Notes: a model not told the origin generated them from the letters alone. DNA of 64,000 nucleotides from an uncultured Gemmatimonadaceae bacterium (GCA_964577965.1 CAZOAT010000002.1:4698-68697); one strand, 5' to 3'. Shown: positions 4,919 through 61,344, counted from the first letter of the stretch. Translations and numbers: made by a program.

Positions 4919-5643
4919 GGCCGGGCTTCCTGCTCGAGTGCCGCAAAGTCGGCGTACCGTGCCGGGTCGGCGACACCCGCCTCGGAAAACCCCCGAAGCC
5001 GCAACTGGCAGGCGTCACACCGGCCGCACGCCTCTCCCGATGTGCCCGGATCGTAGCAGCTCACCGTCTGCGCGTAGTCCACACCGAGTGAGAGGCCGAG
5101 CTGGATTATCTCACGCTTGGTGAGATCGATGAGTGGAGTACGCACGCGGATCTGCATAGCGTTCTCGGTGCCAGTCCGCGTCCCGAGCCTTGCCACTCTC
5201 TCGAATGCTTCTATGAACTCGGGTCGGCAGTCCGGATAGCCGCTGTAGTCGAGGGCATTCACTCCGATGAAGATGTCGGCCGCCGCGATCACCTCGGCCC
5301 ACGCAAGCCCGAGCGAGAGCAGGATCGTGTTGCGCGCGGGCACGTAGGTGACGGGAACGCCGGTGCGGTCGGGAGCTTCGTCTCGTGGCACACCGATCGT
5401 TTCGTCAGTCAATGCCGACCCGCCGAACGTTCGGAGGTCGAGCTCCACGATCTTGTGGGCTTCGACCCGCCAGACGGACGCAACCTCGCACGCAGCCTGC
5501 AACTCCTGTTCGTGACGCTGGCCATAGCGCACGGTCAGGGCGTGCACGCGATACCCTTCGGCGCTTGCCACCGCGAGAGCCGTCGTCGAGTCGAGTCCAC
5601 CGCTCAGAAGCACAACCGCGGCCTTACTGTGTATTTCGGTCAT
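4915..5643 (-). CDS. queC: 7-cyano-7-deazaguanine synthase
   Basis: PP-loop motif [12 protein letters not shown] and a C-terminal Zn Cys cluster (CYDP...[10 protein letters not shown]). Confidence 0.9.
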
Positions 5644-40778: not shown

Positions 40779-41932
40779 CACCGCCCTCTGCTGCGGTCCA
40801 TGGGACCGCGGAGGCGACGCCGGCGAGCGTGACGGATCCGGTCAACGCGAGAATTCTCGCGGTCTCGGAGGACCGCCTCGCAGGTTTCGTCGAGGAGCCG
40901 TTCGCCGAGATCGCGCGGCTGGTGGAAATCGAGGAAAGCGTAGTGCTCGAGCGGTTGCGGGCGATGCATGCCGCTGGAACGATCCGTCGCATCCGCCAGA
41001 CGCTGATGGCGAACAATCTCGCACCCGGTGCACTGGTCGCGTGGCGCGTTCCTCCCGATCTGCTCGATGCAGCGTTTGAGTTCATGGTCCGGGAGGATCC
41101 GTTCTCGGGACACGTTGTGATCCGCTCCACCGACGCGGAAACGCCTGGCTCGGCGTACCGCCTGTGGACCACGCTGAAGGTTCCGCAGGGGTTCTCGGTC
41201 GAACGACATTGTGAGTTGCTGCGCGACTGGATCGGGGCGGAGGCGTTCCGTGTGATGCCGGCGAAGAAGCTGTTCACCCTGGGCGTAGGACACGTGCGCA
41301 GGCGCGACGTGGCGCCCGGCAGCCGGAGCGACGTGCCGGGCGCCGTGCTGAGCACTGACGTGCAGCAGCTCACACCGCTGGAGTGGCGGGTGCTCGAACC
41401 GCTCAAGCGGGAATTCACGGAGGACGAGATCGCGCCCGGGCCCTGGGCGCGAAGAGCAGCGGAAGCAGGGCTCACACTCGGCGAATTCGCCGACGCCGCG
41501 CGCGGCCTGCAGAGCCGCGGTGTGCTGGGGAGGTTCTCCACCTTCCTCGAGCATGTGAAGCCGACGGCCGGCGGAGTGCGCGTGACCCGGTACAATGCGC
41601 TGTTCCACTGGCGGGTTCCCGAGGGTCGCGAGATCGACGCCGGTCGCGAGGTGGGCCGCCACCACATCATCACGCACGCGTACTGGCGGGAAGGAGGGCC
41701 CGAGTTCGCCAATGTCAACGTGATGGCGGTGGCGCACGGGATGGAGAAACCGGCGGTGCTGGAGCACAAGGCAGCAATTGACGCACACCTGGCCGAAGCC
41801 TCGATCCCCGTCCTGTACACCAACGTCTTCTGGGGCGGACGGAGCGAGATAAAGCCCTCCGAGATCCTTCCGTCGGAGTACGAGCGGTGGTGCGGCGCAC
41901 AGGGCGTTGATCCGGACGCCATGCGTGGCTAA
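40775..41932 (+). CDS. Fused siroheme decarboxylase-like protein (NirDL / AhbAB-type, two AsnC-like halves)
   Basis: Two tandem halves, each with the family pattern. Half 1: GTIRRIRQTLMANNLAPGALVAWRVP...YRLWTTLKVP. Half 2: GVLGRFSTFLEH...YNALFHWRVP. The GTG at 40775 gives a GTGA overlap; the ATG at 40763 is an alternative. Confidence 0.65.
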   Translation: MTPPSAAVHGTAEATPASVTDPVNARILAVSEDRLAGFVEEPFAEIARLVEIEESVVLERLRAMHAAGTIRRIRQTLMANNLAPGALVAWRVPPDLLDAAFEFMVREDPFSGHVVIRSTDAETPGSAYRLWTTLKVPQGFSVERHCELLRDWIGAEAFRVMPAKKLFTLGVGHVRRRDVAPGSRSDVPGAVLSTDVQQLTPLEWRVLEPLKREFTEDEIAPGPWARRAAEAGLTLGEFADAARGLQSRGVLGRFSTFLEHVKPTAGGVRVTRYNALFHWRVPEGREIDAGREVGRHHIITHAYWREGGPEFANVNVMAVAHGMEKPAVLEHKAAIDAHLAEASIPVLYTNVFWGGRSEIKPSEILPSEYERWCGAQGVDPDAMRG

Positions 41933-43448
41933 CGGTGTCGTGTTTCTCGTCGGTGCGGGTCCTGGTGATCCGGGCCTGCTCACGGTGCGCGCCCGTGAGC
42001 TGATCGACAGTGCCGACGTGATCGTGTACGACGCGCTCGTGCCGATGGAGATCATCAGCGACGCCGGAGAAGGCCCGTCGCCGCCGGAGCTTTACTACGT
42101 CGGGAAGCGTGGCGGCGACAAACGTTCCGCATCGCAGTCAGACATCTGCGCACTGCTTGTGGAGCTGGCCAGACAGGGGAAGCGCGTCGTCCGGCTGAAG
42201 GGCGGCGATCCATTCGTCTTTGGCCGTGGCGGAGAGGAAGCGCAGGCGCTGTTCGATGCCGATGTCCCCTTCGAGGTCGTTCCGGGTGTGACAGCTGGAA
42301 TAGCTGCACCCGCGTATGCGGGGATTCCGGTGACCCACCGCGGCCGATCAACGTCGGTGACGCTCGTGACCGGGCATGAGGATCCCGGGAAAGGTGGCGG
42401 GCAGACTGACTGGGGCGCGCTCGCGCGGCTCGCCGGCAGCGGCGGTACGGTCGTAGTGTACATGGGTGCAAAGACGCTGCCGACGGTAGTGCGGTCGCTT
42501 CTTGCTGGCGGGCTGGATCCGCACGTACCGGCTGCTGCTGTATCGCGCGGAACCCACAGCCGGCAGCAGACAGTAGTCGCCACAGCCGGGACCATTGTGG
42601 ACGAAATAGCCCGGTCCGGGGCGACAGCCCCGATGGTTGTCGTCTTCGGCTGGACCGTTCCTCTCCGCGACGAGCTCGCGTGGGTCGAGCAGCGGCCGTT
42701 GTTCGGCAAGACTGTCGTCGTCACGCGCGCCACGCAGCAGGCGGGTACGCTCAGCCGTCAGCTTCGCGAGACGGGCGCACGGGTGATGGAGATGCCTGCG
42801 ACAAAAGTTGCGCGTCTCGACAGCGCGGGACTGCAAACCGCCATCGCCCGGCTGCAGGAATATCAGTGGGTCGTGTTCACCAGTCAGAATGCAGTCAACA
42901 TTTTCTGGGAGCAGTTGCTGGCGGCGTCGCGCGACGCCCGCGCTCTCGCTGGAATCCGGGTCGCGGCAGTCGGGCCCGGGACGGCCGGCGCGCTGCTCTC
43001 GCACGGGATTATCGTGGACGTGGTGCCGGAGAGGTTCGTCGCCGAAGGGCTGCTTGACGCGCTGCGCGAACGGAGCGGGGTGGAAGAGGCGAACGTGCTG
43101 TACGTGACCGCCGAGGGCGCACGCGACGTGCTGCGCCCGGGACTGGAAGAGCTCGGGGCCCGTGTGGAGGTGGTGCAGGCGTATCGGTCCGTTCGTGACG
43201 GGCGCGGCGCCGAACGGCTCCGTCGCGAGCTGGAGCGCGGCGGCATCAGCTACGTAACGGTGACCTCCGCGTCAGCGGTGAAGGCTTTCGTGGAGCTCGT
43301 CGGGGAAGAGGCGGCGCGCAGGGCGCGACTGGTGTCGATCGGTCCCGTAACGAGCTCCGCCGCGCGGGAAGCAGGGCTGGACGTGGTCGCCGAAGCGGAG
43401 GAGGCCACGATGGACTCGCTCGTCCGGGCACTCACACGCGCCGGGTAG
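41907..43448 (+). CDS. cobA-hemD: Uroporphyrinogen-III C-methyltransferase fused to uroporphyrinogen-III synthase
   Basis: N-terminal half has VFLVGAGPGDPGLLT and GGDPFVFGRGGEE. The C-terminal 260 aa are HemD-like (two Rossmann-like repeats). The start could also be the GTG at 41925 or 41940. Confidence 0.85.
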   Translation: MIRTPCVANGVVFLVGAGPGDPGLLTVRARELIDSADVIVYDALVPMEIISDAGEGPSPPELYYVGKRGGDKRSASQSDICALLVELARQGKRVVRLKGGDPFVFGRGGEEAQALFDADVPFEVVPGVTAGIAAPAYAGIPVTHRGRSTSVTLVTGHEDPGKGGGQTDWGALARLAGSGGTVVVYMGAKTLPTVVRSLLAGGLDPHVPAAAVSRGTHSRQQTVVATAGTIVDEIARSGATAPMVVVFGWTVPLRDELAWVEQRPLFGKTVVVTRATQQAGTLSRQLRETGARVMEMPATKVARLDSAGLQTAIARLQEYQWVVFTSQNAVNIFWEQLLAASRDARALAGIRVAAVGPGTAGALLSHGIIVDVVPERFVAEGLLDALRERSGVEEANVLYVTAEGARDVLRPGLEELGARVEVVQAYRSVRDGRGAERLRRELERGGISYVTVTSASAVKAFVELVGEEAARRARLVSIGPVTSSAAREAGLDVVAEAEEATMDSLVRALTRAG

Positions 43449-43479
43449 CAGCGTCGGCTCATCAACAGCTGCTTGCGGC

Positions 43480-44427
43480 GTGATCCGCATCGGCACACGT
43501 GCGTCCGATCTGGCCGTCCTGCAGGCCCGAATTGTCGAGCGCGGTCTGGTCGCGTCCGGAGCCGAATGCGAGCTGGTCACCATCCGCACGACCGGTGACA
43601 AGCGCAATGCAGAGCCATTCGCCGAGCTTGGAGCGAAGGGGCTGTTCACGAAGGAGCTCGAGACCGCGCTGCTCCGAAAGAAGGTCGATTGCTGCGTGCA
43701 CTCGCTGAAGGACCTGCCCACCGCCCCCGCCGACGGGCTGGAGATTGCCGTCATCCTGGAGCGCGCAGATCCCCGTGATGCACTGGTCGTCGCGCACGTA
43801 ACACAGGCGTCGAGTCTGGCTGAGCTTCCCGCCGGATCGAGGGTGGGAACGTCCAGTCTTCGCCGGCGGTCGCTCCTCCGCAACGTGCGAGCTGACCTGG
43901 AAGCCGTGGAGTTGCGTGGCAACGTCCCGACGCGGTTGAAGAAGCTCGACTCGGGTACCGTGCACGCCGCGATTCTCGCCGCGGCCGGGCTGATCAGGCT
44001 GGGCGCGCAGCAACGGATCGCGGAGTGGCTCGATCCTCCAGAATGGCTACCGGCACCCGGACAGGGAGCCATTGCCGTGCAGGTGCGCTCAGGCGACAGC
44101 CGCACGCGCGACCTGCTTCAGAGTCTGCATCATGTCCCAACGGATATCGCGGTGCGCGCTGAGCGCTCCCTCCTGGCCGGTCTGGAGGGCGGCTGCCAGG
44201 TGCCGATCGGCGCGCTCGCCATGCAGATGCGGGACGGCCTCACGTTGCATGCTTTCATCTCGGATCTGCACGGCCGGCAGCTGCTGCGCGGCTCGACGAT
44301 AGTGGACGAGCGCGATCCTGAGCGCGCGGGTGCGGCGCTCGCGGCGGACCTTCGGGCGCGTGGTGCCGGGTCGCTCCTGGCCGAGTTGCGTGGCGCGGAC
44401 CAGGTGCCCGCCCCGCAACCGGAGTAG
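43480..44427 (+). CDS. hemC: Hydroxymethylbilane synthase (porphobilinogen deaminase)
   Basis: [16 protein letters not shown]-terminus and cofactor Cys context [10 protein letters not shown]. Confidence 0.9.
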
Positions 44428-44437
44428 TTTTTCGCCG

Positions 44438-45448
44438 ATGTCCGAGTTTCCACTCTCGAGACCACGGCGGCTCCGGCGCACCGCGCCACTGCGCGCGCTG
44501 TTCCGCGAGACCCGACTGTCTCCAGGCCAGCTCGTGCTGCCCCTTTTTGTTCGCACGGGGAACGGGGTTCGTCGCGAGGTGGCTTCGATGCCGGGGGTGG
44601 CTCAGACATCGGTGGACGAGATGATGCGCGATGCTGAAAGCGCCGCGCGCGCCGGATTGGGTGGTGTGATGCTTTTCGGCGTCCCTGATTCGAAGGACGC
44701 CACCGGTACGGGTGCCTGGGACGAGCAGGGCGCTGTGCAGCAGGCGGCACGGGCGCTGAAGAGCGAGTTCCCCGGGCTCGTGGTAATGACCGACGTGTGC
44801 ATGTGCGAGTACACCGATCACGGCCACTGCGGAGTGCTGCGTGACGGAGAGGTGGATAACGACGCCACGCTCGAGCTGCTGGCGCGAACGGCCGTATCGC
44901 AGGCAGCAGCCGGTGCGGACGTCGTCGCGCCAAGCGACATGATGGATGGCCGGGTGCTGGCCATCCGCGAGGCGCTCGACGATGCCGATCTTGGAAGCAC
45001 CGTGGTGCTGAGCTATGCGGTGAAGTACGCGTCTGCTTTCTATGGTCCGTTCCGGGAGGCCGCCGAGTCAGCGCCCCGGTCCGGCGATCGAAGGGCATAT
45101 CAGATGGATTCTGCCAACTCGGACGAGGCGATCCGGGAGGTTCTGACGGACATCGGTGAGGGCGCGGACGCCGTGATGGTCAAACCGGCTGGTCCGTGCC
45201 TCGACATTATCTCTCGCGTGCGCCGCGAGATAAGCTTCCCGCTGGCCGCTTACCAGGTGAGCGGAGAGTACGCCATGATGCAGGCCGCAGCAGCCCGCGG
45301 CTGGCTTGAGCTGGAGAAGGTGATGATAGAGTCTCTGTTGGCGATCCGCCGCGCGGGCGCCGACGTGATCGTGACGTACTTTGCCCGTGAAGCAGCAGGA
45401 TTCCTCACCGAAGGCATGGACCGCGACCCCAAACCCGATCCCTCATGA
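44438..45448 (+). CDS. hemB: Porphobilinogen synthase (delta-aminolevulinate dehydratase), Zn-type
   Basis: Trimmed to [15 protein letters not shown]. Cys-rich metal site [12 protein letters not shown] and Schiff-base Lys in VMVKPA. Confidence 0.9.
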
Positions 45449-51808: not shown

Positions 51809-52305
51809 CCTCGAAACGTTCCCGCTCCGCTCTGATGGCGGCGCGCAGTGCTGCTGCCCGCCCGTCCGTCCGTACCGAGATCTCCTCCGGCGGCGTCGTG
51901 TACCGCAATCGCGCCGGACGCACCGATGTCGCACTGATCTCAGTGGGCGCTCCGGCGCGGTGGCAGCTGCCGAAAGGGCTTGTTGAACACGGCGAGAAGC
52001 CCGACGAGACCGCCGTCCGCGAGGTCCGCGAGGAGGCCGGTGTGCAATCGACCATTGTCGCTCCCCTGGATCGGATCGGCTACTGGTACCAGCGTAGCGA
52101 GAACGGAGCGCGTGTCCGCGTGCGCAAGTTCGTACACTTCTACCTGCTCCGGTATCGCTCCGGTAACGTAAGGCAGCACGACAACGAAGTCCTGGAGGCA
52201 CGGTGGGTGCCTCTGGAGGATGCCGCGGGGATGCTCGCTTTCGCCAGCGAGCGCGCTGTGCTCGCCGAAGCCGCGCGGAAGCTCAGAGGCGAGCGGGACC
52301 GCTAG
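51805..52305 (+). CDS. NUDIX hydrolase
   Basis: Nudix box GLVEHGEKPDETAVREVREEAGV. Confidence 0.85.
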   Translation: MTSKRSRSALMAARSAAARPSVRTEISSGGVVYRNRAGRTDVALISVGAPARWQLPKGLVEHGEKPDETAVREVREEAGVQSTIVAPLDRIGYWYQRSENGARVRVRKFVHFYLLRYRSGNVRQHDNEVLEARWVPLEDAAGMLAFASERAVLAEAARKLRGERDR

Positions 52306-53030
52306 CGCGTCGCTTTCTTGTCGTAGGTCGGCCGCACGGCACCGTGGTCCACCGGTTCCGGTGGCGTGCGCAGGAAGAGGAACTCGTACAGCAGTGCCGC
52401 CACCGCCCCGCCTATGAGCGGGCCGATCCAGAAGATCAGCTGCGCCTCGTACACGCCGCTTGCTACCGCCGGCCCGAAGGAGCGCGCGGGGTTGAGCGAC
52501 GCGCCTGTCAGTGGCCCGATGGCAAGGATTCCAGCCGTCAGCGTGAGTCCGATCGCGAACCCCCCGACCTTCGGCGCCTTGGGATCCACAGCGGTCCCGA
52601 ATACCGCGAGCACCAGGAAGAACGTCGCGATTGCCTCGAGGATGATCGCCTGAGTGCCGGTGATGTCGAGCGAGACCGCCTGACCTCCGCCCCGAGTGGC
52701 TTCGAAGAGTGCTATAGGGAACGTCGCCTTGAGCGCGTATGCTGCGGCCATGGCGCCGATCAGCTGACTCACGATGTACAGTCCGCCCATCATCGCCTCG
52801 ATCCGCCTGGTCAGGAGGAACCCCAGTGTCACCGCCGGGTTGAAGTGCCCGGAGATGCGCATGAGCGCGGTGACCATCACCGCCAGGATCAGCCCGTGCG
52901 CGAACGCCACCTCCATCAGACCGCCGGGAGCGTTGGGCCCGAACGTGACCATGATCGCCGCGCCGCCCACGAAGACGAGCGCGAACGTCCCTATGAACTC
53001 GGAAACGAAGTGGCGAATCGCATCCCGCAT
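52302..53030 (-). CDS. Aquaporin / MIP-family channel
   Basis: Two NPA motifs (NPAVTLG, NPARSFG) and six TM segments. Confidence 0.9.
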   Translation of the reverse strand: MRDAIRHFVSEFIGTFALVFVGGAAIMVTFGPNAPGGLMEVAFAHGLILAVMVTALMRISGHFNPAVTLGFLLTRRIEAMMGGLYIVSQLIGAMAAAYALKATFPIALFEATRGGGQAVSLDITGTQAIILEAIATFFLVLAVFGTAVDPKAPKVGGFAIGLTLTAGILAIGPLTGASLNPARSFGPAVASGVYEAQLIFWIGPLIGGAVAALLYEFLFLRTPPEPVDHGAVRPTYDKKATR

Positions 53031-53089
53031 GCAGCCTCCGTGGTGCGCGGCAGGACCGCGCGGTAGCTACGACGATGTGTCCGTTGTAC

Positions 53090-54337
53090 TCAACTCTGCT
53101 GACGCAGCACCAGCGCGGCGTTGATGCCGCCGAAACCGAACGAGTTCGACATCACACACCCCGCGCGCTTCTCCCTGCCGTCGCCGGCAAGGTAGTCAAG
53201 ATCGCAGGCGTCGTCCGCTTCGGTAAGATTCACCGTAGGCGGCAGCCACCCCCGCTGCATCGCCAGTGAGCATATCGCGACCTCAATCGCGCCCGACGCG
53301 CCAAGCGCGTGGCCATAGTATCCCTTCGTACCACTCAGTGCCATGCGGCCAGCGTGCTCTCCGAAAACCGACTTCACGGCCAGTGTCTCGGTCGGATCGT
53401 TGAGTGGCGTCGAACTGCCGTGCGCGTTGATGTACTCGACTTCGCCCGGTGAGACATGTCCGTCTTCCAGCGCCAGGCGCATTGCTCTGGCCGCCTGCGC
53501 GCCGTCGGGCAGCGGGGCAGTCATGTGATACGCGTCGTTGGTCGTGCCGTAGCCGAGAACTTCTCCATAGATGAGTGCTCCCCTCGCTTGCGCCCGCTCG
53601 TACTCCTCAAGGACCACGACGGCAGAACCCTCACCCATGACGAATCCGTCGCGCCGCTTGTCAAACGGACGGGACGCGCGTTCCGGCTCGTCGTTCGCCG
53701 TGGACATTGCGCGTATGAGCGCAAAGGCGCCGAAGCAGAGCGGAGCGAGCGGCGCTTCGGCACCGCCGCAGACCATGATGTCCGCGTAGCCGTCGCGGAT
53801 CTGGCGGAACCCTTCGCCAACGGCGATGGTGCCGGATGCGCAGCTCATGGAGTTGGTCGAATTGGGACCGGTAAGGCCGAATTCGATCGCCACATTGCAG
53901 CTCGATGCGCCGCCGAAAACTCCCAGCGCGAGATAGGCGTCCACAGCCCGCAGTCCGTCCTTCAGGTACGCGGCCAGCTGGCTCTCGGCGTAACTGCATC
54001 CGCCGAGCGCGCTCCCCATCATCGAGCCCACCCGGTCGCGATCCTCGCGCTCCATCCTGAGACCGGAGTCTTCCATGGCCATTCGTGCCGCGACGAGTGA
54101 GAACTGCCCGAATCGATCGAGCCGCTTTGCGCGCTTCTGCTCCAGGTGATCGGTCGGCACGAAATCGCGGACCTCAGCGGCGTTTCTGCTGCGAAACGGA
54201 GTGGGGTCGAATCGGGTAACGCCCCGAACCGCCGAGCGCTGGCTCCGCAGCCCGTTCCAGAGGCCCTCCTTGCCGATGCCGATTGGCGTCACCGCGCCTA
54301 CACCCGTGATCGCCACCCGACGACGCTGCGTGTGCAT
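53090..54337 (-). CDS. Beta-ketoacyl-ACP synthase II-like condensing enzyme
   Basis: Trimmed to MHTQRRRVAITGVGAVTPIG. Cys-His-His triad contexts are SCASG, YHMTAP and INAHGSSTP. Confidence 0.85.
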   Translation of the reverse strand: MHTQRRRVAITGVGAVTPIGIGKEGLWNGLRSQRSAVRGVTRFDPTPFRSRNAAEVRDFVPTDHLEQKRAKRLDRFGQFSLVAARMAMEDSGLRMEREDRDRVGSMMGSALGGCSYAESQLAAYLKDGLRAVDAYLALGVFGGASSCNVAIEFGLTGPNSTNSMSCASGTIAVGEGFRQIRDGYADIMVCGGAEAPLAPLCFGAFALIRAMSTANDEPERASRPFDKRRDGFVMGEGSAVVVLEEYERAQARGALIYGEVLGYGTTNDAYHMTAPLPDGAQAARAMRLALEDGHVSPGEVEYINAHGSSTPLNDPTETLAVKSVFGEHAGRMALSGTKGYYGHALGASGAIEVAICSLAMQRGWLPPTVNLTEADDACDLDYLAGDGREKRAGCVMSNSFGFGGINAALVLRQQS

Positions 54338-54338
54338 C

Positions 54339-54857
54339 TCAACTCCTGTTGTGTGACTCTGCGGCGCTCGCGAGGCCGGAAAGTGTGCGCGAGGCAATTC
54401 CGTGAATGAACACCGGTCCGATCACGCTGGTTGCGGCGAGCCCTCCTATGAGCGGCCAGCGTGGCCCGTCCCAGGCATGCACGATTCGAACGAGTGTCGA
54501 TCCATCCAGCGGTGAGAACAGCCACTCCACGTCCATGCCCGTGGTGATTCCTCCCACATGCCGGAAGCGGATCGCCGGCCGGTCGTGATCCACCGCCATC
54601 AGCGACAGCCACCAGGTTGGCCAGTTCGCGATCCAGAACGGGCGATTGGCAGCCATTTCCACGAGACCACCGTCGTCCTCCCTCTGGCGGAATCGCACGT
54701 ACCTGTAGTGCGGGAGATGGCGGGGCCATCCTTCGACCTCGCTTGCGATCGCGAAAATCGCTTCGATCGGGGCGTGGACCAGTCGTTCGTCCACTGTCAT
54801 CATGCGGCGGTTGAGCGGCATTACGCCGAGCGGCCCGATGGCCGGTGGGTGAGTCAT
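54339..54857 (-). CDS. SRPBCC-superfamily (polyketide cyclase/dehydrase / START-like) protein
   Basis: About 170 aa with a typical SRPBCC N-terminus (V.API..IF....EVE.WP..LPHY). The ATG at 54857 overlaps the methyltransferase stop (ATGA). Confidence 0.6.
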   Translation of the reverse strand: MTHPPAIGPLGVMPLNRRMMTVDERLVHAPIEAIFAIASEVEGWPRHLPHYRYVRFRQREDDGGLVEMAANRPFWIANWPTWWLSLMAVDHDRPAIRFRHVGGITTGMDVEWLFSPLDGSTLVRIVHAWDGPRWPLIGGLAATSVIGPVFIHGIASRTLSGLASAAESHNRS

Positions 54858-55576
54858 TGCGCGCCCTCTCGGTAAGAGTGTGCGGGGGTCCAGCTCGCGG
54901 TGATGCGGAAACCACGGCGCGAGTGCACAGCGGCATCCCTGCCGAGCGCCTGCCGCGCAAGCGACTGCAGCTCCGGAACCGTGTATCCGCGTCGGATGGA
55001 CGCGATGCCGTCGTGCCGGCTCACGGGGTGAAAGCGGAGAGCGAAAGAGGCGAGCCACAGCCCGACGACGGCCAGTCGGCTGCGCCGGATGTCGCTCACT
55101 ATCGCGCGCATCCGTGCCACCCGGTCGATCTCGCGAATGAGCTCCGCCGCGACAGTAGCACTGAAGTGGTGCAGCAGCTGCGAGCAGGTCACGATGTCCA
55201 CGCTGTTATCGCGGAACGGGAGCGCGCCCGCGTCCGCAACCAGTGTGGCGGCTACGCGGGAGCTGCTCACGCGGGCGAGATCATTCGAGGCATCCAGTCC
55301 CACGGTGAACAGGAGTCTGTCGCGACCGCGCGCGAGCGCCTGGGCGGCCCAGGGGATGTCGCCCAGCCCGGTTCCAACGTCGAGCAGCGACACACTTGCC
55401 GGAGCGCTGTCGAGAGCGGCATCGATCTCGCGGAGCACGGCGCGTGTTCCACCGAACAGCCGGTTCGACAGAGCGACGTCGCGCATCGATCTCCTCACGA
55501 GTGCTGGATCGAGCGTGCGGTCGTCCAGGATCTCCGGGTGATCGGCGCGCGGTGTCGTTGCCGAAAGGGCGGTCAC
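54854..55576 (-). CDS. Class I SAM-dependent methyltransferase
   Basis: SAM motif I LLDVGTGLGD and a post-I acidic residue. The GTG at 55576 overlaps the flavin reductase stop (GTGA). Confidence 0.75.
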   Translation of the reverse strand: MTALSATTPRADHPEILDDRTLDPALVRRSMRDVALSNRLFGGTRAVLREIDAALDSAPASVSLLDVGTGLGDIPWAAQALARGRDRLLFTVGLDASNDLARVSSSRVAATLVADAGALPFRDNSVDIVTCSQLLHHFSATVAAELIREIDRVARMRAIVSDIRRSRLAVVGLWLASFALRFHPVSRHDGIASIRRGYTVPELQSLARQALGRDAAVHSRRGFRITASWTPAHSYREGAQ

Positions 55577-56043
55577 TTGCCGAGCTGTGTGTAGCCGCCG
55601 CGATAGTACACGAGCGGCTCGCCTGGACGGCTGTCTGCGATCTCCACGATGCCGGTGAAGATCGTGTGGTCTCCGCCGGGGAACGCATCTGCACGGCGGC
55701 ACTCCATCCACGCAAGCACGTCGTCGAGAATCGGCGCACCTGACTGGCCAGGTCGGAAGCCGATGCCATCGAACCTGTCCACTTCCTGATCGCTGAACCG
55801 CCGGGCAAGCACTTCCTGCGACGCCTCGAGGACGTTCACGACGAAATGCGTTGCTGACTGCAGCGCGTCGTACATGCGTGCTTCGTGATCGATGCACAGC
55901 AACACCATCGGGGGTGACAGGCTGAGCGAGCAGAAGGAGCTCACGGTCATGCCGGCGTCGCCTTCGCTGCCGCTCACGGTGACTACGGTGACGCCACTGA
56001 CAAACCGGCCCAGCACGCTGCGGAAGGTGTCGGGGTCGATCAT
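55573..56043 (-). CDS. Flavin reductase-domain protein (FMN-binding split barrel, HpaC/RutF-like)
   Basis: FRSVLGRFVSGVTVVT...MTVSSFCSLSLSPP pattern. The ATG at 56043 overlaps the upstream stop (ATGA). Confidence 0.8.
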   Translation of the reverse strand: MIDPDTFRSVLGRFVSGVTVVTVSGSEGDAGMTVSSFCSLSLSPPMVLLCIDHEARMYDALQSATHFVVNVLEASQEVLARRFSDQEVDRFDGIGFRPGQSGAPILDDVLAWMECRRADAFPGGDHTIFTGIVEIADSRPGEPLVYYRGGYTQLGK

Positions 56044-57254
56044 GCGGCCGCCGGTGCGCGGCCGCCGAGCAGCAGCGGGAGAAGGAATGCCGCCCGCAGC
56101 AGCTCCCGGGGAGGAATGAAATCGCCGCATACGCCGACGAGGATGTCGGCGAGGTCTTTGCGCCGCGCCAGAGTCGCAGTGAATCGGTTCATCAGCGCCG
56201 GTCGGGCGACGGCCACGCTGACGAGCCTCTCGACTGCCCACTTGCCCGCGAACTCGCTCCGCCGCGTGCGTCGGTATTCGCGCATCATCTGGGGCTCGCA
56301 TCGCGCCTCCTCCAGTACTGAAAGCGCAAGCGGTGCGAGCAGCTCGGCGCCGCGCAACGCCGCGAAGATGCCTTCACCGGTGAACGGATCGTAGAAGTCC
56401 GCTGCATCTCCAACCAGGGCCACTCCCGGAGTCCACGGTCTGGTCACTCGACTGGCGAACGGCCCGGTGGCGCGCACCGGCCCGCGGCGGCCGGCCGCCA
56501 TGAAACGGTTGCGCAGGTGTGGACGGTGGTGAATCCAGTGCTCGAGGAATCCTGCAGCGTTTCCTGCGACGCTGCGGGCGGCGGAGGTCGGGATGACGAC
56601 AGCAACGTTGGTGACGTCCCCCACAGGAGCGAGTCCGAAGTAGCCGCCCCCATCCACATGCATCTCGCCAGCGCTGGTCAGCCCGGACACACCCTCGTAG
56701 TGAGCAGTGAGTGCGAGGCGCGACGGCCATCTGAACCGGTGCGCCACACCGGCACGCCGTGCGACGACAGAACGAAGCCCGTCCGCGCCGACCACGAGCC
56801 TGGCGCTCACGCGCAGTCCCGTTCCCGCGTCGGCCGTTGCGACCACCCCTGTCACACGGCCGCCTGCAGTTCGTACGAGATCGCCGACCCGGGCGCCTTC
56901 AACGACCCGGGTGCCGGCACGCGCCGCGGCCTCCAGGAGCGCGGCGTCGAGAATCGTTCGTCGCACTGCGAGCCCGCTGTCGCTGTAACCCCGGAATCCG
57001 TGCGAGCCCGCGAACTCGCCATGCAGCCATTCGCCGCGCGGCGAGCGCACCCGCATCCCCGAAAGCTGCGAGCCGTGCGGCTCGACCTGGGAGAGCACGT
57101 TCATCGCCACCAGCATACGCGACGATTCGGGACTCAGGTACTCCGCGCATGCTTTGTCGCGGGGGAAGCGTGCTCGATCCAGAAGCACCACGCTCGCTCC
57201 CGATCGGGCGAGCGCCCACGCAGTGGCGGAACCGGCCGGTCCCCCGCCCACCAC
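56040..57254 (-). CDS. Geranylgeranyl-reductase-family FAD-dependent oxidoreductase
   Basis: VGGGPAGS dinucleotide motif, an early Cys (DKACAEYLSP), GADGLRSVV and GDAADFYDPFTGEGI. The true start may lie a few codons upstream. Confidence 0.75.
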   Translation of the reverse strand: MVGGGPAGSATAWALARSGASVVLLDRARFPRDKACAEYLSPESSRMLVAMNVLSQVEPHGSQLSGMRVRSPRGEWLHGEFAGSHGFRGYSDSGLAVRRTILDAALLEAAARAGTRVVEGARVGDLVRTAGGRVTGVVATADAGTGLRVSARLVVGADGLRSVVARRAGVAHRFRWPSRLALTAHYEGVSGLTSAGEMHVDGGGYFGLAPVGDVTNVAVVIPTSAARSVAGNAAGFLEHWIHHRPHLRNRFMAAGRRGPVRATGPFASRVTRPWTPGVALVGDAADFYDPFTGEGIFAALRGAELLAPLALSVLEEARCEPQMMREYRRTRRSEFAGKWAVERLVSVAVARPALMNRFTATLARRKDLADILVGVCGDFIPPRELLRAAFLLPLLLGGRAPAAA

Positions 57255-57277
57255 GCAGACGTCGGCGCGCAGCGAGG

Positions 57278-58711
57278 TCAGGCGACCGCCCGGGCAACGC
57301 GCTGAAACGCTCCCATGTATCGCCAGTGCGGGCGGGGCAGGTTCAGGATCGATGCAGCCCGCGTCAGGTAAGGCAGGACCCGTGATTGTGAGTCAGCCGA
57401 GAACATGAACCTGGGATGCGCGGTCGCGAACCGCCGGAGGCGGAGAACGATCTCTCCCGCATCCAGCACGGGTGACATGTAGAACCGCGGGGCGAGCAGT
57501 GCATCGCGCGACTCGACGACACCTTCGCTGAGTGCGATGCTGTGGAGCGTCGTGCCGGGGTAGATGCGCAGCCCGACCGTCACGTATACGGCATCCCCGC
57601 GGCCCAGCCGCCATCCGGCGAACGCCAGCGTCTCTTCGATGGTGGCCATCGTCTCACCCGGCCCACCGACGAGAAAGATCCACAACGCTTTCAATCCGGC
57701 TCGCTCGACCCGCTCGGCGGTCTCCCGTGCGCGCGCGACGGAGAAGCCCTTCTCCAGTCGGTCGAGCACCCGATCGCTCGCACTCTCAGCAGTGATTCCA
57801 ATCGCGCGGAAGCCGGCTGCACCCATCGCCGCGAGCAACTCGCGTGGAGCCACTGCCGGGGTGAAGTTCGTGGTTTCCAGCGTCACCGTGAGCCGACGGC
57901 GGGCGATCTCCTCGCAGACTTCCATCGCGTGCCCCGGCGGCGAGTTGAAGGTGGAATCCACGAAGTCGAAATGACGGACACCCGCTTCACGGTTCAACAG
58001 CTCGATCTCGTCGGCGACCAGTGCGGGCGCACGGGTGCGGTAGCCGAACCCCTCCACGTTGCGGTAGGTGCAGTAGATGCAGCGGAAGACGCAGCCGCGT
58101 TTCGTCTGGATTGGAATCGTTCCACCGTGCCGCTGGTATCTCCGGAGGTCGAACCAGTCGTGCAGCCGCGCAGGGGGCAGTGAATCCAGATCCGCCTCGT
58201 CACCGGGAGGGGCGAATTGCACGATCGAGCCCGAGCGCTGGACAATGCCTGGAATGCACCGTTCTTCTCTGGAAGCGAGCGACTCCACGAGCTCGACGGT
58301 CGCGCGTTCTCCGTCGCCGGCTACCCCGTAATCCACACCGAGTTCGGTGAAGAGGGCTTCAGGGGCGACGCCGAACGCAGCGCCACCGGCTATCACCGTA
58401 GCTCGTGGAGCCACCACCCGCAGCTCCTTCATGATCGCGATCGCTTCGGGGGTGTAGTGCCGAAGCATCATTGAATCGCTGTTGTCGATGTTTCTAACGG
58501 AAAGTCCGATCACGTCCGGCCGTACTGCGCGCACTGCCGCGCGAACCGACCGGATCGGTGTGCGGTCGAAGCAGAGATCGAGTGCGCGCACGTCATGGCC
58601 GGCAGCGCGGAGGGCAGACGCTACGCACCCGAGGCCATTGGGCACGACCGGATACGGCTGTCTCTCCCGGTTGGCGCTGACGAGCAGGACGCGCGCTCCG
58701 GGGGTACTCAC
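57278..58711 (-). CDS. B12-binding-domain radical SAM enzyme (class B)
   Basis: N-terminal cobalamin-binding-type domain (RVLLVSANRE..PVVPNGLGCVASALRAAGHDV) and radical SAM motif GCVFRCIYC. The GTG at 58711 overlaps the DUF92 stop (GTGA). Confidence 0.8.
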   Translation of the reverse strand: MSTPGARVLLVSANRERQPYPVVPNGLGCVASALRAAGHDVRALDLCFDRTPIRSVRAAVRAVRPDVIGLSVRNIDNSDSMMLRHYTPEAIAIMKELRVVAPRATVIAGGAAFGVAPEALFTELGVDYGVAGDGERATVELVESLASREERCIPGIVQRSGSIVQFAPPGDEADLDSLPPARLHDWFDLRRYQRHGGTIPIQTKRGCVFRCIYCTYRNVEGFGYRTRAPALVADEIELLNREAGVRHFDFVDSTFNSPPGHAMEVCEEIARRRLTVTLETTNFTPAVAPRELLAAMGAAGFRAIGITAESASDRVLDRLEKGFSVARARETAERVERAGLKALWIFLVGGPGETMATIEETLAFAGWRLGRGDAVYVTVGLRIYPGTTLHSIALSEGVVESRDALLAPRFYMSPVLDAGEIVLRLRRFATAHPRFMFSADSQSRVLPYLTRAASILNLPRPHWRYMGAFQRVARAVA

Positions 58712-59487
58712 GCAAGCACCGTCAGCAGTCCCACCGAGACTGCCCCACCAGACAGCGTCGCCAACGCGTTCACGAGGTCGTTCCGCAGCCCCGGAACGCC
58801 GCCGATGAATTCTGAGGGGTGTCCGCAGACGTGGACGAGTCGTTCGGTGCCGCGATCGCACGCGGGGCACCATCGCTGTTCCTGAACGGTTGCGCCGATT
58901 ATCGAGTCTGCCAGCATTCCCGCCACACCTCCGATGAGTAAAACCCACAGCGGGGCGTCCAATCCCAGCAGCCTGGCGCCAGCGGACACGATGAGCGCCC
59001 CGAGGATTCCTGCTCCTGTACCAGCAAGCGTTACGCCCCCGGAAGCGCCGGCTTGGACGGGCTTTGCCGTGACGATCGATCGGGGGACCTCACTGGACAG
59101 CAGTCCGAGCTCGGTCGCCCAGGTGTCGGCGCTCGAGGCTGCAAGTGCTCCCGCGGCGAACGCGACCCACACGGGCTCCCTCGTCAGCGCGTACATCACG
59201 GCGCCGGCGGCGAACGCGCCGCCGTTGGCCAGGACCTGCGCGGCATCGCGCGAGCCGCTCTTTTCGGGGAGTCCGCCTGCCTTCCTCACCTTGGCGTCAC
59301 GTCGAAGGCGGGAGACCGTGGTCGCCGCACCGAAGTACAGAAGCAGGAGAACCAGCCAGGCACCTCCGGCTGCTATCGCAGCGACGCCGGTAAGCAGGGC
59401 GGCCAGAACACCCGAGGCCGTCAGCCCCAGCGCGGCCGTCACGGCTCCATGCGATCTTTGTTCCTGTTGAAGCCATTTTCCCGGCAC
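58708..59487 (-). CDS. DUF92 / TMEM19-family integral membrane protein (VTE6-like)
   Basis: Polytopic protein. Conserved C-terminal region GMLADSIIGATVQ and Cys-containing loop CPACDRGTE. The start is uncertain; I chose the GTG at 59487, preceded by GGAGGG. ATG codons at 59541/59547 would abut the divergent gene. Confidence 0.6.
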   Translation of the reverse strand: MPGKWLQQEQRSHGAVTAALGLTASGVLAALLTGVAAIAAGGAWLVLLLLYFGAATTVSRLRRDAKVRKAGGLPEKSGSRDAAQVLANGGAFAAGAVMYALTREPVWVAFAAGALAASSADTWATELGLLSSEVPRSIVTAKPVQAGASGGVTLAGTGAGILGALIVSAGARLLGLDAPLWVLLIGGVAGMLADSIIGATVQEQRWCPACDRGTERLVHVCGHPSEFIGGVPGLRNDLVNALATLSGGAVSVGLLTVLA

Positions 59488-59545
59488 GTTAGGTTGCGCC
59501 CTCCGCTGCTTCTGTTTGCACCCCCGCCGCTCCGCCCACATCAGC

Positions 59546-60166
59546 ATGTCTGCAACCGTTGACGCACTCCTCCCGCTGAGCCTCCTCGAGGCAGTGCGTA
59601 CCCTGGATACTCCGGCGGGCGACGATGACGCGGAATACGTGGACGAGCTTCGCAGCAAACGCCTCGGCCTCAGCGACACCGTCTACGCACAGATCCGAAG
59701 GTACACGGAAGCCGCCAAGCGCAACGAGCGCCTTCCGATGAGCGAGGCCGTCGGAATAGCGCGACTCATTGGACGGCGTCCGGATGCCGACCGCATCTTC
59801 CGCGATGGCGGTACGTGGCTGGCGAATCAGGTACATAACCGCATTGCCCGGCCGGTACGCTGGATCATCCGCTTCCTGCCTTCGATCGTCGCACGACCGC
59901 TGGCCTTCCGACAGACGAGACTCGTCGCCGAACGGTATTACAACGGATCCATTGAGCGCGTCGGTTCGTTCGTGCTGCTCGCGGTGCCGGAGTCGCCGAC
60001 TGCCGGCTCCGCTCCGAATGCAGCCGGTTGTGTGTACTACGAGGCGAGCCTGGGAGTGATCCTTCAGAAGCTCCTCGACGCCGGCGGGCGAATCGAGCAT
60101 GTGCGGTGCGCTGACAAGGGCGACGGCGTGTGCCAGTGGCGCGCAGACTGGCGACAGGGGCGATGA
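59546..60166 (+). CDS. Hypothetical protein with V4R-like (4-vinyl-reductase-type) C-terminal signature
   Basis: C-terminus IEHVRCADKGDGVCQW resembles the E..C...GD..C.F ending of V4R small-molecule-binding domains. Weak, motif-level call only. Confidence 0.35.
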   Translation: MSATVDALLPLSLLEAVRTLDTPAGDDDAEYVDELRSKRLGLSDTVYAQIRRYTEAAKRNERLPMSEAVGIARLIGRRPDADRIFRDGGTWLANQVHNRIARPVRWIIRFLPSIVARPLAFRQTRLVAERYYNGSIERVGSFVLLAVPESPTAGSAPNAAGCVYYEASLGVILQKLLDAGGRIEHVRCADKGDGVCQWRADWRQGR

Positions 60167-61344
60167 GCACGCTCGCGCCTGCAACGCTGCCGCGCCTGCA
60201 GGAGGCGATCCGGGAGGCGGGCCTCGACGGCTGGCTCCTCTTCGATTTTCACGGAATAAATTCGATCGCCGCAGGGATGCTCCGCCTGGAGGGGTTCACG
60301 ACGCGCCGTGGCTTCGCCTGGATCCCTGCTACCGGCACTCCGACCGCGCTGTCGAACGCGATAGAGCAGGGGCCGTGGCGCAACTGGCCGGGTGAGTGGG
60401 AGATGGTCCAGTACAGCGGCTGGCGCTCGCTGGAGTCCTCGCTCGCGAAGCTCGTCGGAGGCAAGCGGGTGGCCATGGAATACTCACCTGGCGACGCGGT
60501 GCCATACCTCGATCGCGTTCCTGCAGGAGTTCTGGAGATGGTGCAGTCAGCCGGCGCGACGGTCTTCACATCGGCTGACCTCGTGACCGCGTTCTACGCG
60601 GTATGGACTGACGCGGACAGGGCTTCTCACGAACGGGCTGCCAGGGTCATCGCAGGCATCGCGCAGGCGGCGATTCGGCTTGCTGGCGAACGTGCATCCG
60701 CCCAGCCGATCACTGAGTACGAACTTGCTCAGTGGATACTGGCGCGGTTCGCCGACTCGGGACTGAGCACCGATCACGGTCCCATAGTGGCCGTCGGGCC
60801 GAACGCGGCGAATGCGCATTACGAGCCGCTGCCGGCCGTATCTCCACCCATCGAGCGCGGAACGATCCTGCTCGTCGATCTCTGGGCGAGGGAGGATGGG
60901 GGCGTCTTTGCCGATCAAACCTGGATGGCATCCCTCGGTGAGCCGGGCGAACGGGACGCGAAGGTCTGGACCGCCGTGCGCGAAGGGCGTGACGCTGCCA
61001 TCGACCTGCTGCGCGCGCGTCTCGGTGCAGACGCGCCGGTGAAGGGAGCTGACGTGGATGATGCAGCCCGCACCACTATCGAGCGTCACGGCTTCGGCGA
61101 GCGCTTCATCCACCGGACCGGCCATTCGATCGATTCGCGGGACCTGCACGGGTCAGGTCCCCACCTCGACAACTTCGAGACTCACGAGGAGAGAGCGCTG
61201 ATCCCCGGTGTCGGCTTCTCCATCGAGCCCGGGATCTACATTCCCGGCGAAGTCGGAATGCGCTCGGAAGTGAACGCTTTCATCGACGGACGCCAGCTGC
61301 TGGTCACCCCGGCCGAATATCAGCGCGATCTGTTGATAGTCTGA
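60163..61344 (+). CDS. M24-family metallopeptidase (Xaa-Pro aminopeptidase/dipeptidase-like)
   Basis: Trimmed to the ATG at 60163 (ATGA overlap). Metal-ligand contexts are VDLWA..DGGVFADQT, HRTGHSID, FSIEPGIY and RSEVNAFI. Confidence 0.8.
   Translation: MSTLAPATLPRLQEAIREAGLDGWLLFDFHGINSIAAGMLRLEGFTTRRGFAWIPATGTPTALSNAIEQGPWRNWPGEWEMVQYSGWRSLESSLAKLVGGKRVAMEYSPGDAVPYLDRVPAGVLEMVQSAGATVFTSADLVTAFYAVWTDADRASHERAARVIAGIAQAAIRLAGERASAQPITEYELAQWILARFADSGLSTDHGPIVAVGPNAANAHYEPLPAVSPPIERGTILLVDLWAREDGGVFADQTWMASLGEPGERDAKVWTAVREGRDAAIDLLRARLGADAPVKGADVDDAARTTIERHGFGERFIHRTGHSIDSRDLHGSGPHLDNFETHEERALIPGVGFSIEPGIYIPGEVGMRSEVNAFIDGRQLLVTPAEYQRDLLIV

Follow-up and report, generated by a model that had tools for sequence, protein, structure and literature searches.

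What might an operon make that joins a cobalamin-dependent radical S-adenosylmethionine (SAM) enzyme to a condensing enzyme of the fatty acid type, a relative of polyketide cyclases, a methyltransferase, and a pair of flavin enzymes? Such an operon, seven co-directional open reading frames (ORFs) on the minus strand, lies at positions 53090-59487 of a 64,000-nucleotide stretch of DNA, here called the window, from an uncultured Gemmatimonadaceae bacterium (GCA_964577965.1, CAZOAT010000002.1:4698-68697). It encodes, in order, a DUF92 membrane protein, the radical SAM enzyme (rSAM), a flavoprotein dependent on flavin adenine dinucleotide (FAD), a flavin reductase, a SAM methyltransferase (MT), an SRPBCC protein, and a FabF-type β-ketoacyl-acyl carrier protein (ACP) synthase II (KAS). 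Pfam and NCBIfam profiles bore out all seven family labels given in a preliminary description of the locus. The operon also appears to be undescribed, as was claimed there: the searchable full-text literature yielded no account of this gene set or of a pairing between a type III polyketide synthase (T3PKS) and a B12-dependent rSAM. Our answer to the question is a tentative one, to which we give a little less than an even chance: the operon would encode a pathway to a phenolic or alkyl-quinone-type lipid, in which the KAS and a cyclase replace a T3PKS and C-methylation is the task of the B12 enzyme.

Partners of the radical SAM enzyme in other phyla

The argument starts from the company that the rSAM keeps. 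A genome scan with this protein, using one genome per species, gave about 590 matches, of which the best 80 were annotated. These comprise about 60 loci from Gemmatimonadaceae or Gemmatimonadales and 20 from other phyla, against which the window proteins were run by tblastn. Together with 9 further representatives, about 30 out-of-phylum neighborhoods were examined. L-numbers denote genomic loci that carry rSAM relatives, or related MT or flavoprotein operons; ORF calls in loci outside the window are heuristic.

Outside the phylum, the rSAM relatives are 37 to 47% identical to the window protein and have three types of partner. A T3PKS adjoins the rSAM in at least 11 loci (L069, L070, L072 to L076, L081, L082, L086/87, and L095). 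These neighbors match Chal_sti_synt_N and Chal_sti_synt_C, and their Cys/His/Asn triad can be read. The order in L086 is T3PKS-MT-rSAM, with a true geranylgeranyl reductase (GGR; GG-red-SF score of 220) 2 kb off. The second partner, a FabF-like KAS, adjoins the rSAM in L062, L093/94, L064, L085, and L096. Both L062 (Armatimonadota) and L093/94 hold a free-standing rSAM-MT-SRPBCC-KAS operon with unrelated flanks, in which MT, SRPBCC, and KAS follow one another as they do in the window. The L062 KAS is 60% identical to that of the window, and the MT position of L093 is filled by an annotated UbiE/Methyltransf_11-type enzyme. A Planctomycetia locus (L064) reads KAS-rSAM-FAD, its flavoprotein being 40% identical to the window's and matching the same NCBIfam profile; L085 reads KAS-rSAM-U32 and L096 KAS-rSAM. 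The third partner is a MenA-like UbiA prenyltransferase, which occurs as UbiA-GGR-rSAM in L067 (KSB1) and as rSAM-UbiA-glycosyltransferase in L083.

Do the two kinds of condensing enzyme ever occur side by side? Among the neighborhoods examined, KAS and T3PKS were never seen together in one locus, an exclusion that looks like gene displacement. Homologues of the MT (30 to 37% identity) are found with both, standing beside a T3PKS in L086, L074, Roseomonas (L090), and Deinococcus (L092) and beside rSAM-SRPBCC-KAS in L062. The window MT matches those of L086 (37% identity), Roseomonas, and Deinococcus at 31 to 37% identity with E values of 1e-15 to 1e-22, and its closest plasmid-borne homologues belong to T3PKS-MT-FAD operons of the latter two genera. 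Its best NCBIfam family, NF004851/PRK06202 (131 bits over the full length, under the cutoff of 243; Methyltransf_11, 46 bits), is also the best family of the MT in L086.

Two further genes recur near the rSAM. One is a divergent member of the peptidase U32 family (29.5 bits with Pfam, no NCBIfam match), which takes the place of the window flavoprotein in some anaerobic relatives, namely L081 (13058-14302; Geomonas) and L085 (1746-2498; an unassigned metagenome contig). The U32 proteins UbiU and UbiV are O2-independent quinone-ring hydroxylases. The other is a small cupredoxin gene, present in L070 (9035-9454), L071 (9553-9963), L073 (9565-9945), L075 (8111-8482), L082 (1615-2016), L088 (144-548), and L083 (12617-12985), mostly in loci that also have a T3PKS. 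Five loci have it directly upstream of the rSAM, the L082 copy lies on the opposite strand, and that of L083 is 3 kb downstream; an upstream position is frequent in the anaerobe group.

By gene content, then, what recurs is a condensing enzyme together with a PRK06202-type MT and the rSAM, with or without a putative ring-oxidizing enzyme (the flavoprotein in Gemmatimonadaceae, U32 in L081 and L085) and with or without a prenyltransferase, the pattern expected of phenolic-lipid or quinone head-group assembly. It is because of this pattern that KAS plus SRPBCC may be read as a functional replacement for a T3PKS, and the case for displacement is circumstantial. The operon had been noted to lack a T3PKS, and indeed a tblastn search with four T3PKS queries (E<0.01) found none in the operon or the 64-kb window. 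What that observation left out is that relatives place the rSAM and MT beside a T3PKS instead of KAS and SRPBCC.

The radical SAM enzyme and its family

The rSAM has an N-terminal PF02310 domain (65 bits) followed by PF04055 (83 bits). Its CxxxCxxC cluster motif reads GCVFRCIYC, and C207, C211, and C214 are invariant in an alignment of diverse relatives (alignment A1). By domain order and cluster motif, it is a predicted class B, or cobalamin-dependent, radical SAM enzyme. Its best curated family is TIGR04072 (rSAM_ladder_B12), at 326.7 bits under a cutoff of 360. Ten rSAMs from outside the phylum, two of them from anammox bacteria, score 299 to 346 bits and also fall under this cutoff. On these scores, the window group is best placed as a sister of the curated “ladderane/lipid” family and not as a member of it.

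The second-best curated family is BzaD (TIGR04385), at 224.5 bits far under its cutoff of 450, and no bza or cobT genes were found in the operon with Pfam and NCBIfam. The N-terminal B12 domain matches TsrM (PDB 6wte) at 4e-32. TsrM is a Trp C2-methylase, and both it and BzaD methylate aromatic carbons. Since JGI labels the rSAM “BchE,” it was also compared with that family and scored 117.8 bits against a cutoff of 481. A bacteriochlorophyll-like reading of the locus, with analogues of BchE, BchP, BchJ, and VTE6, was rejected, the scores for BchP-ChlP (65 bits; cutoff, 343) and BchJ (21.8 bits; cutoff, 74) being likewise far below threshold.

How large is this group? A search of 1.84 billion cluster representatives recovered 1,098 at E≤1e-30, and relatives occur in hundreds of species genomes. 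The Gemmatimonadota rSAMs form one cluster, and the next relatives are at most 46% identical. In a quick neighbor-joining tree, whose deep branches are short and not to be over-read, the Gemmatimonadaceae rSAMs are nearest those of KAS+U32, KAS+MT+SRPBCC, MT+U32+T3PKS, and T3PKS+MT loci; the rSAMs of anaerobe loci with a T3PKS and a cupredoxin form a separate clade.

The condensing enzyme and the cyclase-like protein

If KAS and SRPBCC are to do the work of a T3PKS, what can be read from the two proteins themselves? The KAS retains its Cys-His-His residues in the contexts SCASG, AHGSST, and YGHALGASG, and the window holds no second ketosynthase (KS). The SRPBCC protein matches Polyketide_cyc (31.8 bits), and its best match in the PDB is the TcmN aromatase/cyclase (4e-5), along with BexL and WhiE/ZhuI-type cyclases. 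Across 55 orthologues, the TcmN pocket residues W28, Y35, W65, S67, and W95 are invariant, and the position of TcmN R82 is an invariant His.

Other components that such a pathway could draw on are not encoded nearby. No MenA-like UbiA, U32, cupredoxin, or ACP gene and no paralogue of the operon genes was found elsewhere in the 64-kb window. The operon itself has neither an ACP nor a prenyltransferase, as originally noted.

The flavoprotein and its flavin reductase

The flavoprotein has a PHBH fold (FAD_binding_3, 82 bits; QhpG, 102 bits). It had been called geranylgeranyl-reductase-like, but closer comparison does not support calling it a prenyl reductase. Its score for GG-red-SF (TIGR02032) is 133.8 bits, under the cutoff of 158.8; it has no match to GGR_cat (PF22578); and the YxWxFP motif of GGRs is replaced (GGYFGLAPV). 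It does carry a GGR-type Cys in PRDKxC[A/G]EYLSP (PRDKACAEYLSP) and the TGEGI motif. Is it a halogenase instead? Halogenases lead its matches to solved structures (CndH at 3e-23, 8zop, Mpy16, Bmp2, and PltA), and an archaeal GGR is fourth at 1.7e-16. When the protein is aligned with CndH and 8zop, however, the position of the halogenase Lys falls in LSGMRV and WxWxIP is replaced by YFGLAP, and the same holds for the five orthologues aligned. A halogenase identity was dropped on these two grounds. By motif and profile, the flavoprotein is best described as a member of the GG-reductase superfamily that is neither a canonical GGR nor a halogenase and that forms, with the Planctomycetia protein of L064, a separate putative subgroup without a name.

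Two motifs of the window flavoprotein, DKxCGE and GGYxGLxxV, recur in the FAD monooxygenase encoded by the Roseomonas T3PKS operon. For the L064 orthologue, identity to a T3PKS-operon FAD enzyme is 29% over 388 amino acids (E of 5e-14). The closest plasmid-borne homologue of the flavoprotein (34% identity) is on a Skermanella plasmid (L091; NZ_CP067421.1, 402345-413424) and has both the halogenase Lys and WFWFIP. It lies in a cluster of KS, chain-length-factor, FabG, acyltransferase, and GT2 genes, apparently for an aryl-polyene-like lipid. This homologue is of the halogenase type, and therefore these flavoprotein subfamilies lie close together.

The adjacent flavin reductase matches PF01613 (152.6 bits) and, under the equivalog cutoffs, HsaB (142 bits) and the HpaC type (126 bits). 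Its gene is translationally coupled on both sides, by an ATGA overlap upstream and a GTGA overlap downstream. Halogenases and PqsL use free reduced flavin, and the coupling of an HpaC-type reductase suggests, by analogy, that the flavoprotein does so too. Another possibility is that the reductase acts on behalf of the rSAM or its cobalamin; CobR, a member of the PF01613 family, reduces corrinoids.

Operon structure and conservation within the family

The features of the locus are collected in Table 1. The seven ORFs all have the coordinates first assigned to them, and the gene junctions read exactly as described at the outset, with GTGA overlaps for DUF92/rSAM (58708-58711) and flavin reductase/MT (55573-55576), ATGA overlaps for flavoprotein/flavin reductase (56040-56043) and MT/SRPBCC (54854-54857), and a 1-nucleotide spacer at 54338 between SRPBCC and KAS (TGA-g-ATG). 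The motifs quoted for the proteins are likewise all in the translations: GCVFRCIYC in the rSAM; GGGPAG, GADGLRS, and GDAADFYDPFTGEGI in the flavoprotein; LLDVGTGLGD in the MT; and the Cys/His/His residues of the KAS.

Table 1. Features of the operon and the divergent gene next to it
Feature	Coordinates	Strand	Remarks
DUF92 integral membrane protein	58708-59487	-	259 aa; operon gene 1
Class B (cobalamin-binding) radical SAM enzyme (rSAM), predicted	57278-58711	-	477 aa; signature gene of the operon
FAD-dependent flavoprotein	56040-57281 or 56040-57254	-	413 aa (CTG start) or 404 aa (GTG start)
NAD(P)H:flavin reductase, HpaC/HsaB type	55573-56043	-	156 aa
Class I SAM methyltransferase (MT), PRK06202 type, distantly UbiE/MenG-like	54854-55576	-	240 aa
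SRPBCC protein related to polyketide aromatase/cyclases	54339-54857	-	172 aa
FabF-type β-ketoacyl-ACP synthase II (KAS)	53090-54337	-	415 aa; last gene of the operon
Divergent ORF, weakly V4R/BchJ-like	59516-60166	+	Membership in the system uncertain

One junction needs a second look. The 23-nucleotide gap (57255-57277) reported between the rSAM and the flavoprotein presupposes that the latter begins at GTG 57254, directly on its GxGxxG motif, a start that would cost the protein its first Rossmann strand. The frame is open 5' of this codon (…LTSLRADVCVVGGGPAG), in a stretch that has no ATG, GTG, or TTG. In a relative whose rSAM is 84% identical (L001), the homologous position has an ATGA overlap, yielding MTSLRADVCVVGGGPAG, exactly where the window has CTGA (57281-57278). 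For this reason the junction is most likely a fifth 4-nucleotide overlap, with a CTG codon that is either an unusual start reached through translational coupling or a base error, and the gap is the less likely of the two readings.

Where does the operon begin and end? A promoter and terminator scan of 52200-60400 gave nothing beyond shuffled expectation, and because of this the boundaries are drawn from gene spacing and strand alone. Rfam had no match at the gathering threshold anywhere in the window, so no B12 riboswitch or other RNA element was seen. The window is about 65% G+C, and its composition is unbroken at the operon.

Gene order is conserved among relatives. Of the 42 Gemmatimonadaceae/Gemmatimonadales loci with sufficient sequence downstream, 40 have the complete run rSAM-FAD-flavin reductase-MT-SRPBCC-KAS in this order. 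Upstream of the rSAM, 49 of 51 family loci have DUF92, and sub-modules recur in other phyla as described above. Median identities in the family loci are highest for KAS (71%), rSAM (69%; orthologues range from 64 to 84%), and SRPBCC (63%), followed by FAD (56%), flavin reductase (54%), MT (53%), and DUF92 (46%). The called genes of two closer relatives show the same overlap pattern as the window. Within the family this order is weak proof of shared function, because the flanking genes are syntenic too, with the V4R-like ORF and an M24 peptidase upstream and often an aquaporin (MIP) downstream. The operon is retained, though, in family loci in which the downstream flank changes. Overall, these findings support one conserved, translationally coupled operon.

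A few loci depart from the usual arrangement. In one Gemmatimonadales locus (L051, 10001-12119), rSAM and MT (67% and 53% identical) stand by themselves, the other five genes being absent; their neighbors are a multicopper oxidase, a chromate transporter, and a LytS/LytTR two-component system. In one metagenome-assembled genome (MAG) labeled Gemmatimonas aurantiaca (L057, 5737-6303), SRPBCC is missing and the MT gene has lost its 3' third, by deletion or assembly artifact; another MAG so labeled (L061) has the SRPBCC gene and a complete MT gene. Finally, a 4.6-kb contig (L035; JADGRS010000289.1) from a MAG labeled Burkholderiales carries a typical Gemmatimonadaceae V4R-DUF92-rSAM-FAD arrangement, with an rSAM 66% identical to that of the window, and is probably a binning error.

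DUF92 and the divergent gene

The first gene of the operon is firmly a DUF92 gene (PF01940, 181 bits against a cutoff of 27.5; TIGR00297, 104 bits, under the cutoff of 206). It is absent from the family locus L029 and, by tblastn, from beside the rSAM in all the out-of-phylum neighborhoods sampled. In at least 8 family loci, one or two genes for predicted small lipoproteins are inserted between DUF92 and rSAM (L025, 9408-9980; L027, 9525-10010; L028, 8404-9959; and the same position in L037, L038, L047, L059, and L060), and they have no counterpart in the window. No ACP was found in these inserts; their readable coding ORFs are the small predicted lipoproteins, and that of L025 has only sub-threshold Pfam matches. 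By this distribution, DUF92 appears to be the loosest member of the operon and a lineage-specific accessory of Gemmatimonadaceae. The DUF92 family includes VTE6, a phytyl-phosphate kinase, and CTP-dependent prenyl-phosphate kinase activity is a candidate function for the window protein. The earlier view that the operon mixes isoprenoid-type with acyl-type enzymes depends mainly on this Gemmatimonadaceae-only gene and needs to be revised.

Was a regulator missed? The operon lacks one, as was said from the start, and the nearest candidate for an additional component is the divergent V4R-like ORF, which is separated from DUF92 by less than 60 nucleotides. It has no Pfam match and only a weak one to the NCBIfam model of BchJ (E of 1.4e-4; 21.8 bits against a cutoff of 74). 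It is syntenic in most family loci that extend upstream of the operon, as is the M24 peptidase gene that follows it (60130-61344, plus strand; 37-nucleotide overlap). The V4R-like ORF is a candidate hydrophobic-ligand-binding partner, and not a DNA-binding regulator. As for the rest of the window, translations were read by eye. Positions 1-48000 suggested no pathway genes. QueE-like and QueC-like genes lie at 4286-5643, and a fused uroporphyrinogen-III methyltransferase/synthase-like gene followed by a HemB-like gene lies at 41907-45448.

Comparison with known systems

The hierridin operon has the layout hidC>hidA>hidB, of the T3PKS-MT-FAD type, and planctomycetal alkylresorcinol clusters are alike; when a planctomycetal MT and FAD enzyme were expressed together, alkylresorcinols gained one methyl group, probably on carbon (PMC10896814, PMC8086630). 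With these hidABC/Srs-type operons the window has in common a homologous PRK06202-type MT, a PHBH-fold flavoprotein with the two motifs found in the Roseomonas FAD monooxygenase, and the logic of a condensing enzyme combined with ring tailoring. It differs in having a FabF-type KAS and a TcmN-like SRPBCC instead of a T3PKS, in its additional B12-rSAM, flavin reductase, and DUF92, and in the weakness of the flavoprotein similarity. As far as can be judged from the genes, the operon would work most like a hid/Srs-type alkylresorcinol tailoring operon, but it lacks the T3PKS that defines that family.

A second point of comparison is the kuste2802-2805 cluster of Kuenenia stuttgartiensis, together with TIGR04072, in which a B12-rSAM is clustered with FabF and another condensing enzyme. 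In contrast, the window rSAM is under the cutoff of that family, as mentioned, and the carriers of its group are mostly Gemmatimonadaceae, from which no ladderanes are known. A role as ladderane candidates has been proposed for kuste2802-2805 (PMC2649909, PMC4790861), and the Kuenenia enzyme itself is still uncharacterized (PMC13459092).

Other resemblances are partial. BzaC, BzaD, and BzaE, of anaerobic dimethylbenzimidazole synthesis, are named as methyltransferases (PMC8123684). They too pair an ordinary SAM MT with a B12-rSAM methylase acting on an aromatic ring, but the window rSAM is far under the BzaD cutoff, bzaA/B and cobT are lacking, and the context is one of lipids or polyketides, not cobamides. 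With the type II polyketide synthase aromatase/cyclases (TcmN, WhiE, ZhuI, and BexL), the window shares the SRPBCC fold and pocket residues and an adjacent KS of the FabF/KS-alpha superfamily; it differs in that its FabF-like KS stands alone, without a chain-length factor or ACP, and in having Met or Gln for Arg69 and His for Arg82. The flavoprotein resembles the GGR family (ChlP/BchP, archaeal GGR, and MenJ) in its PHBH fold, GxGxxG, the Cys after PRxK, and GDAAxxxDPxTGxGI, and is set apart from it by the GG-red-SF, YxWxFP, and GGR_cat results given above. With flavin-dependent halogenases such as CndH and PltA, it shares the fold and the coupled flavin reductase, but not the halogenase Lys or WxWxIP.

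A proposed pathway and its alternatives

How might the parts work together? The steps below take the observed homologies, motif states, and gene neighborhoods as their basis, and every chemical step is inferred from them. The FabF-type KAS would extend a fatty acyl-ACP from the housekeeping fatty acid synthase with malonyl-ACP, without intervening reduction. The TcmN-like SRPBCC protein would then fold, cyclize, or aromatize the poly-β-keto end, so that the two proteins together would do the job of a single T3PKS. The PRK06202-type MT would methylate the ring, and the B12-rSAM would methylate a carbon beyond the reach of ordinary SAM chemistry, either a ring carbon or a neighboring chain carbon. 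This pair would be analogous to BzaC, a SAM MT, and BzaD, a B12-rSAM, on the benzimidazole ring, where BzaD is the ring C-methylase and acts after an O-methyltransferase. In Gemmatimonadaceae, the flavoprotein, using reduced flavin from the adjacent reductase, would hydroxylate the ring toward a hydroquinone or quinone or, less likely, reduce a double bond. DUF92 would be a lineage-specific membrane accessory. The products first envisaged were a membrane lipid or an alkyl- or prenyl-quinone. Of these, the class of tailored lipids and alkyl-quinones is retained, with an alkyl-quinone or phenolic lipid favored and a prenyl product less probable.

A more specific version can be put forward, though we consider it rather unlikely as a whole. 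A minimal, ACP-dependent “two-protein alkylresorcinol synthase,” made up of a FabF-type KS and a TcmN-like SRPBCC, would have displaced the T3PKS. The rSAMs would make up a large sister family of BzaD and kuste2803 and would be C-methylases of phenolic or quinone head groups. Gemmatimonadaceae would produce an alkyl-(hydro)quinone bearing methyl and methoxy groups, an analogue of respiratory quinones built by polyketide chemistry.

Several points weigh against a phenolic or alkyl-quinone-type product. The KAS is almost a textbook FabF (TIGR03150, 511.4 bits against a cutoff of 493.75; 413 bits to solved FabFs), and there is no ACP, chain-length factor, or thioesterase in the cluster or the 64-kb window. 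Where TcmN has its catalytic Arg69, the SRPBCC protein has Met, or Gln in the Armatimonadota type; the pocket of the SRPBCC protein is conserved, but its catalytic residues would have to differ from those of TcmN, and cyclase activity is putative. The flavoprotein is weakly similar to the FAD enzymes of T3PKS operons, the BLAST match of the window protein covering only 47 residues, and its GGR-type cysteine may point to a reductase role. The likeness to hidABC operons was drawn with Roseomonas, Deinococcus, and L086 proteins, not with HidA or HidB. Finally, product chemistry exists for no member of the rSAM group.

Could the product be a modified fatty acid with no aromatic ring? FabF would then elongate an acyl-ACP methylated, branched, or cyclized by the B12-rSAM, the flavoprotein would reduce a C=C bond, and the MT and SRPBCC protein would finish or carry the product, giving an unusual branched or modified membrane fatty acid along the lines proposed for kuste2802-2805. 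We think this improbable on balance but the strongest of the alternatives. The KAS is a canonical FabF, and the closest curated family of the rSAM is named “lipid biosynthesis B12-binding/radical SAM protein”; the GGR-type cysteine and TGEGI of the flavoprotein and the Planctomycetia KAS-rSAM-FAD trio point the same way, as does the clustering of the Kuenenia B12-rSAM kuste2803 with the FabF kuste2804 (PMC4790861, PMC2649909). Yet all the rSAMs sampled, anammox included, are under the cutoff of that curated family, and kuste2802-2805 in Escherichia coli gave no new fatty acid, though most of the proteins were insoluble (PMC4790861). Such a product would also leave unexplained why the rSAM and MT pair with T3PKSs, a MenA-like prenyltransferase, and U32 proteins, and why aromatase/cyclases are the closest relatives of the SRPBCC protein. 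Tailoring of an isoprenoid or prenyl-quinone is a good deal less probable. DUF92 would be a VTE6-like prenyl-phosphate kinase, the flavoprotein would saturate a prenyl chain like MenJ or ChlP, the MT and B12-rSAM would methylate a menaquinone-like head, the SRPBCC protein would be a Coq10-like quinone binder, and the KAS would merely be a neighbor. That last assumption sits badly with the linkage of KAS to rSAM in at least five non-Gemmatimonadota lineages and with the MT-SRPBCC-KAS order kept across phyla. DUF92 is present, but missing outside the family and in L029, and the flavoprotein fails both the score cutoff and the motif test for a GGR. There are weak matches to MenJ, UbiH, UbiE, and MenG, a MenA-like UbiA, alone or together with a true GGR, does adjoin some rSAM relatives, and Coq10 belongs to PF03364 as well. 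The operon, however, is without a prenyltransferase, and the sole UbiA-family gene nearby has no match to the MenA-like queries and is probably a heme O synthase, because it adjoins a COX15/CtaA gene in a relative.

Two other explanations can be given very little weight. That the genes share no pathway and are co-transcribed neighbors preserved by family-level synteny would fit the flanks, which within the family are syntenic too (V4R-like, M24, and often MIP). It is hard to square with the five 4-nucleotide start/stop overlaps and the 1-nucleotide spacer, with the survival of the operon where its downstream flank has changed, and with the recurrence of sub-modules in unrelated phyla and different neighborhoods; we therefore consider it very improbable. 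Least credible of all is a two-component FADH2-dependent halogenase system whose product would be a halogenated lipid or polyketide. Among solved structures the flavoprotein does match halogenases best, and its gene is translationally coupled to that of a flavin reductase, but neither the window protein nor any of the five aligned family orthologues has the catalytic Lys or WxWxIP, and both are present in the halogenase-type homologue from Skermanella.

Significance

Why pursue this operon? The rSAM group is large and has no characterized member, and its nearest curated neighbor is a long-standing but untested “ladderane” candidate. Its links to T3PKSs, FabF-type KSs, PRK06202-type MTs, MenA-like prenyltransferases, and U32 proteins point to phenolic or quinone-type lipids, which can be searched for by liquid chromatography-mass spectrometry. 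Cultured Gemmatimonadaceae are aerobes and offer a practical entry point. If it is true that KAS and SRPBCC replace the T3PKS, this would be a new way of building alkylresorcinols, and if the two-protein synthase is real, the link between the anammox enzymes and ladderane ring formation would need rethinking. For the Gemmatimonadaceae themselves, a product that is a redox-active quinone would matter for how an abundant soil phylum respires or copes with oxidative stress.

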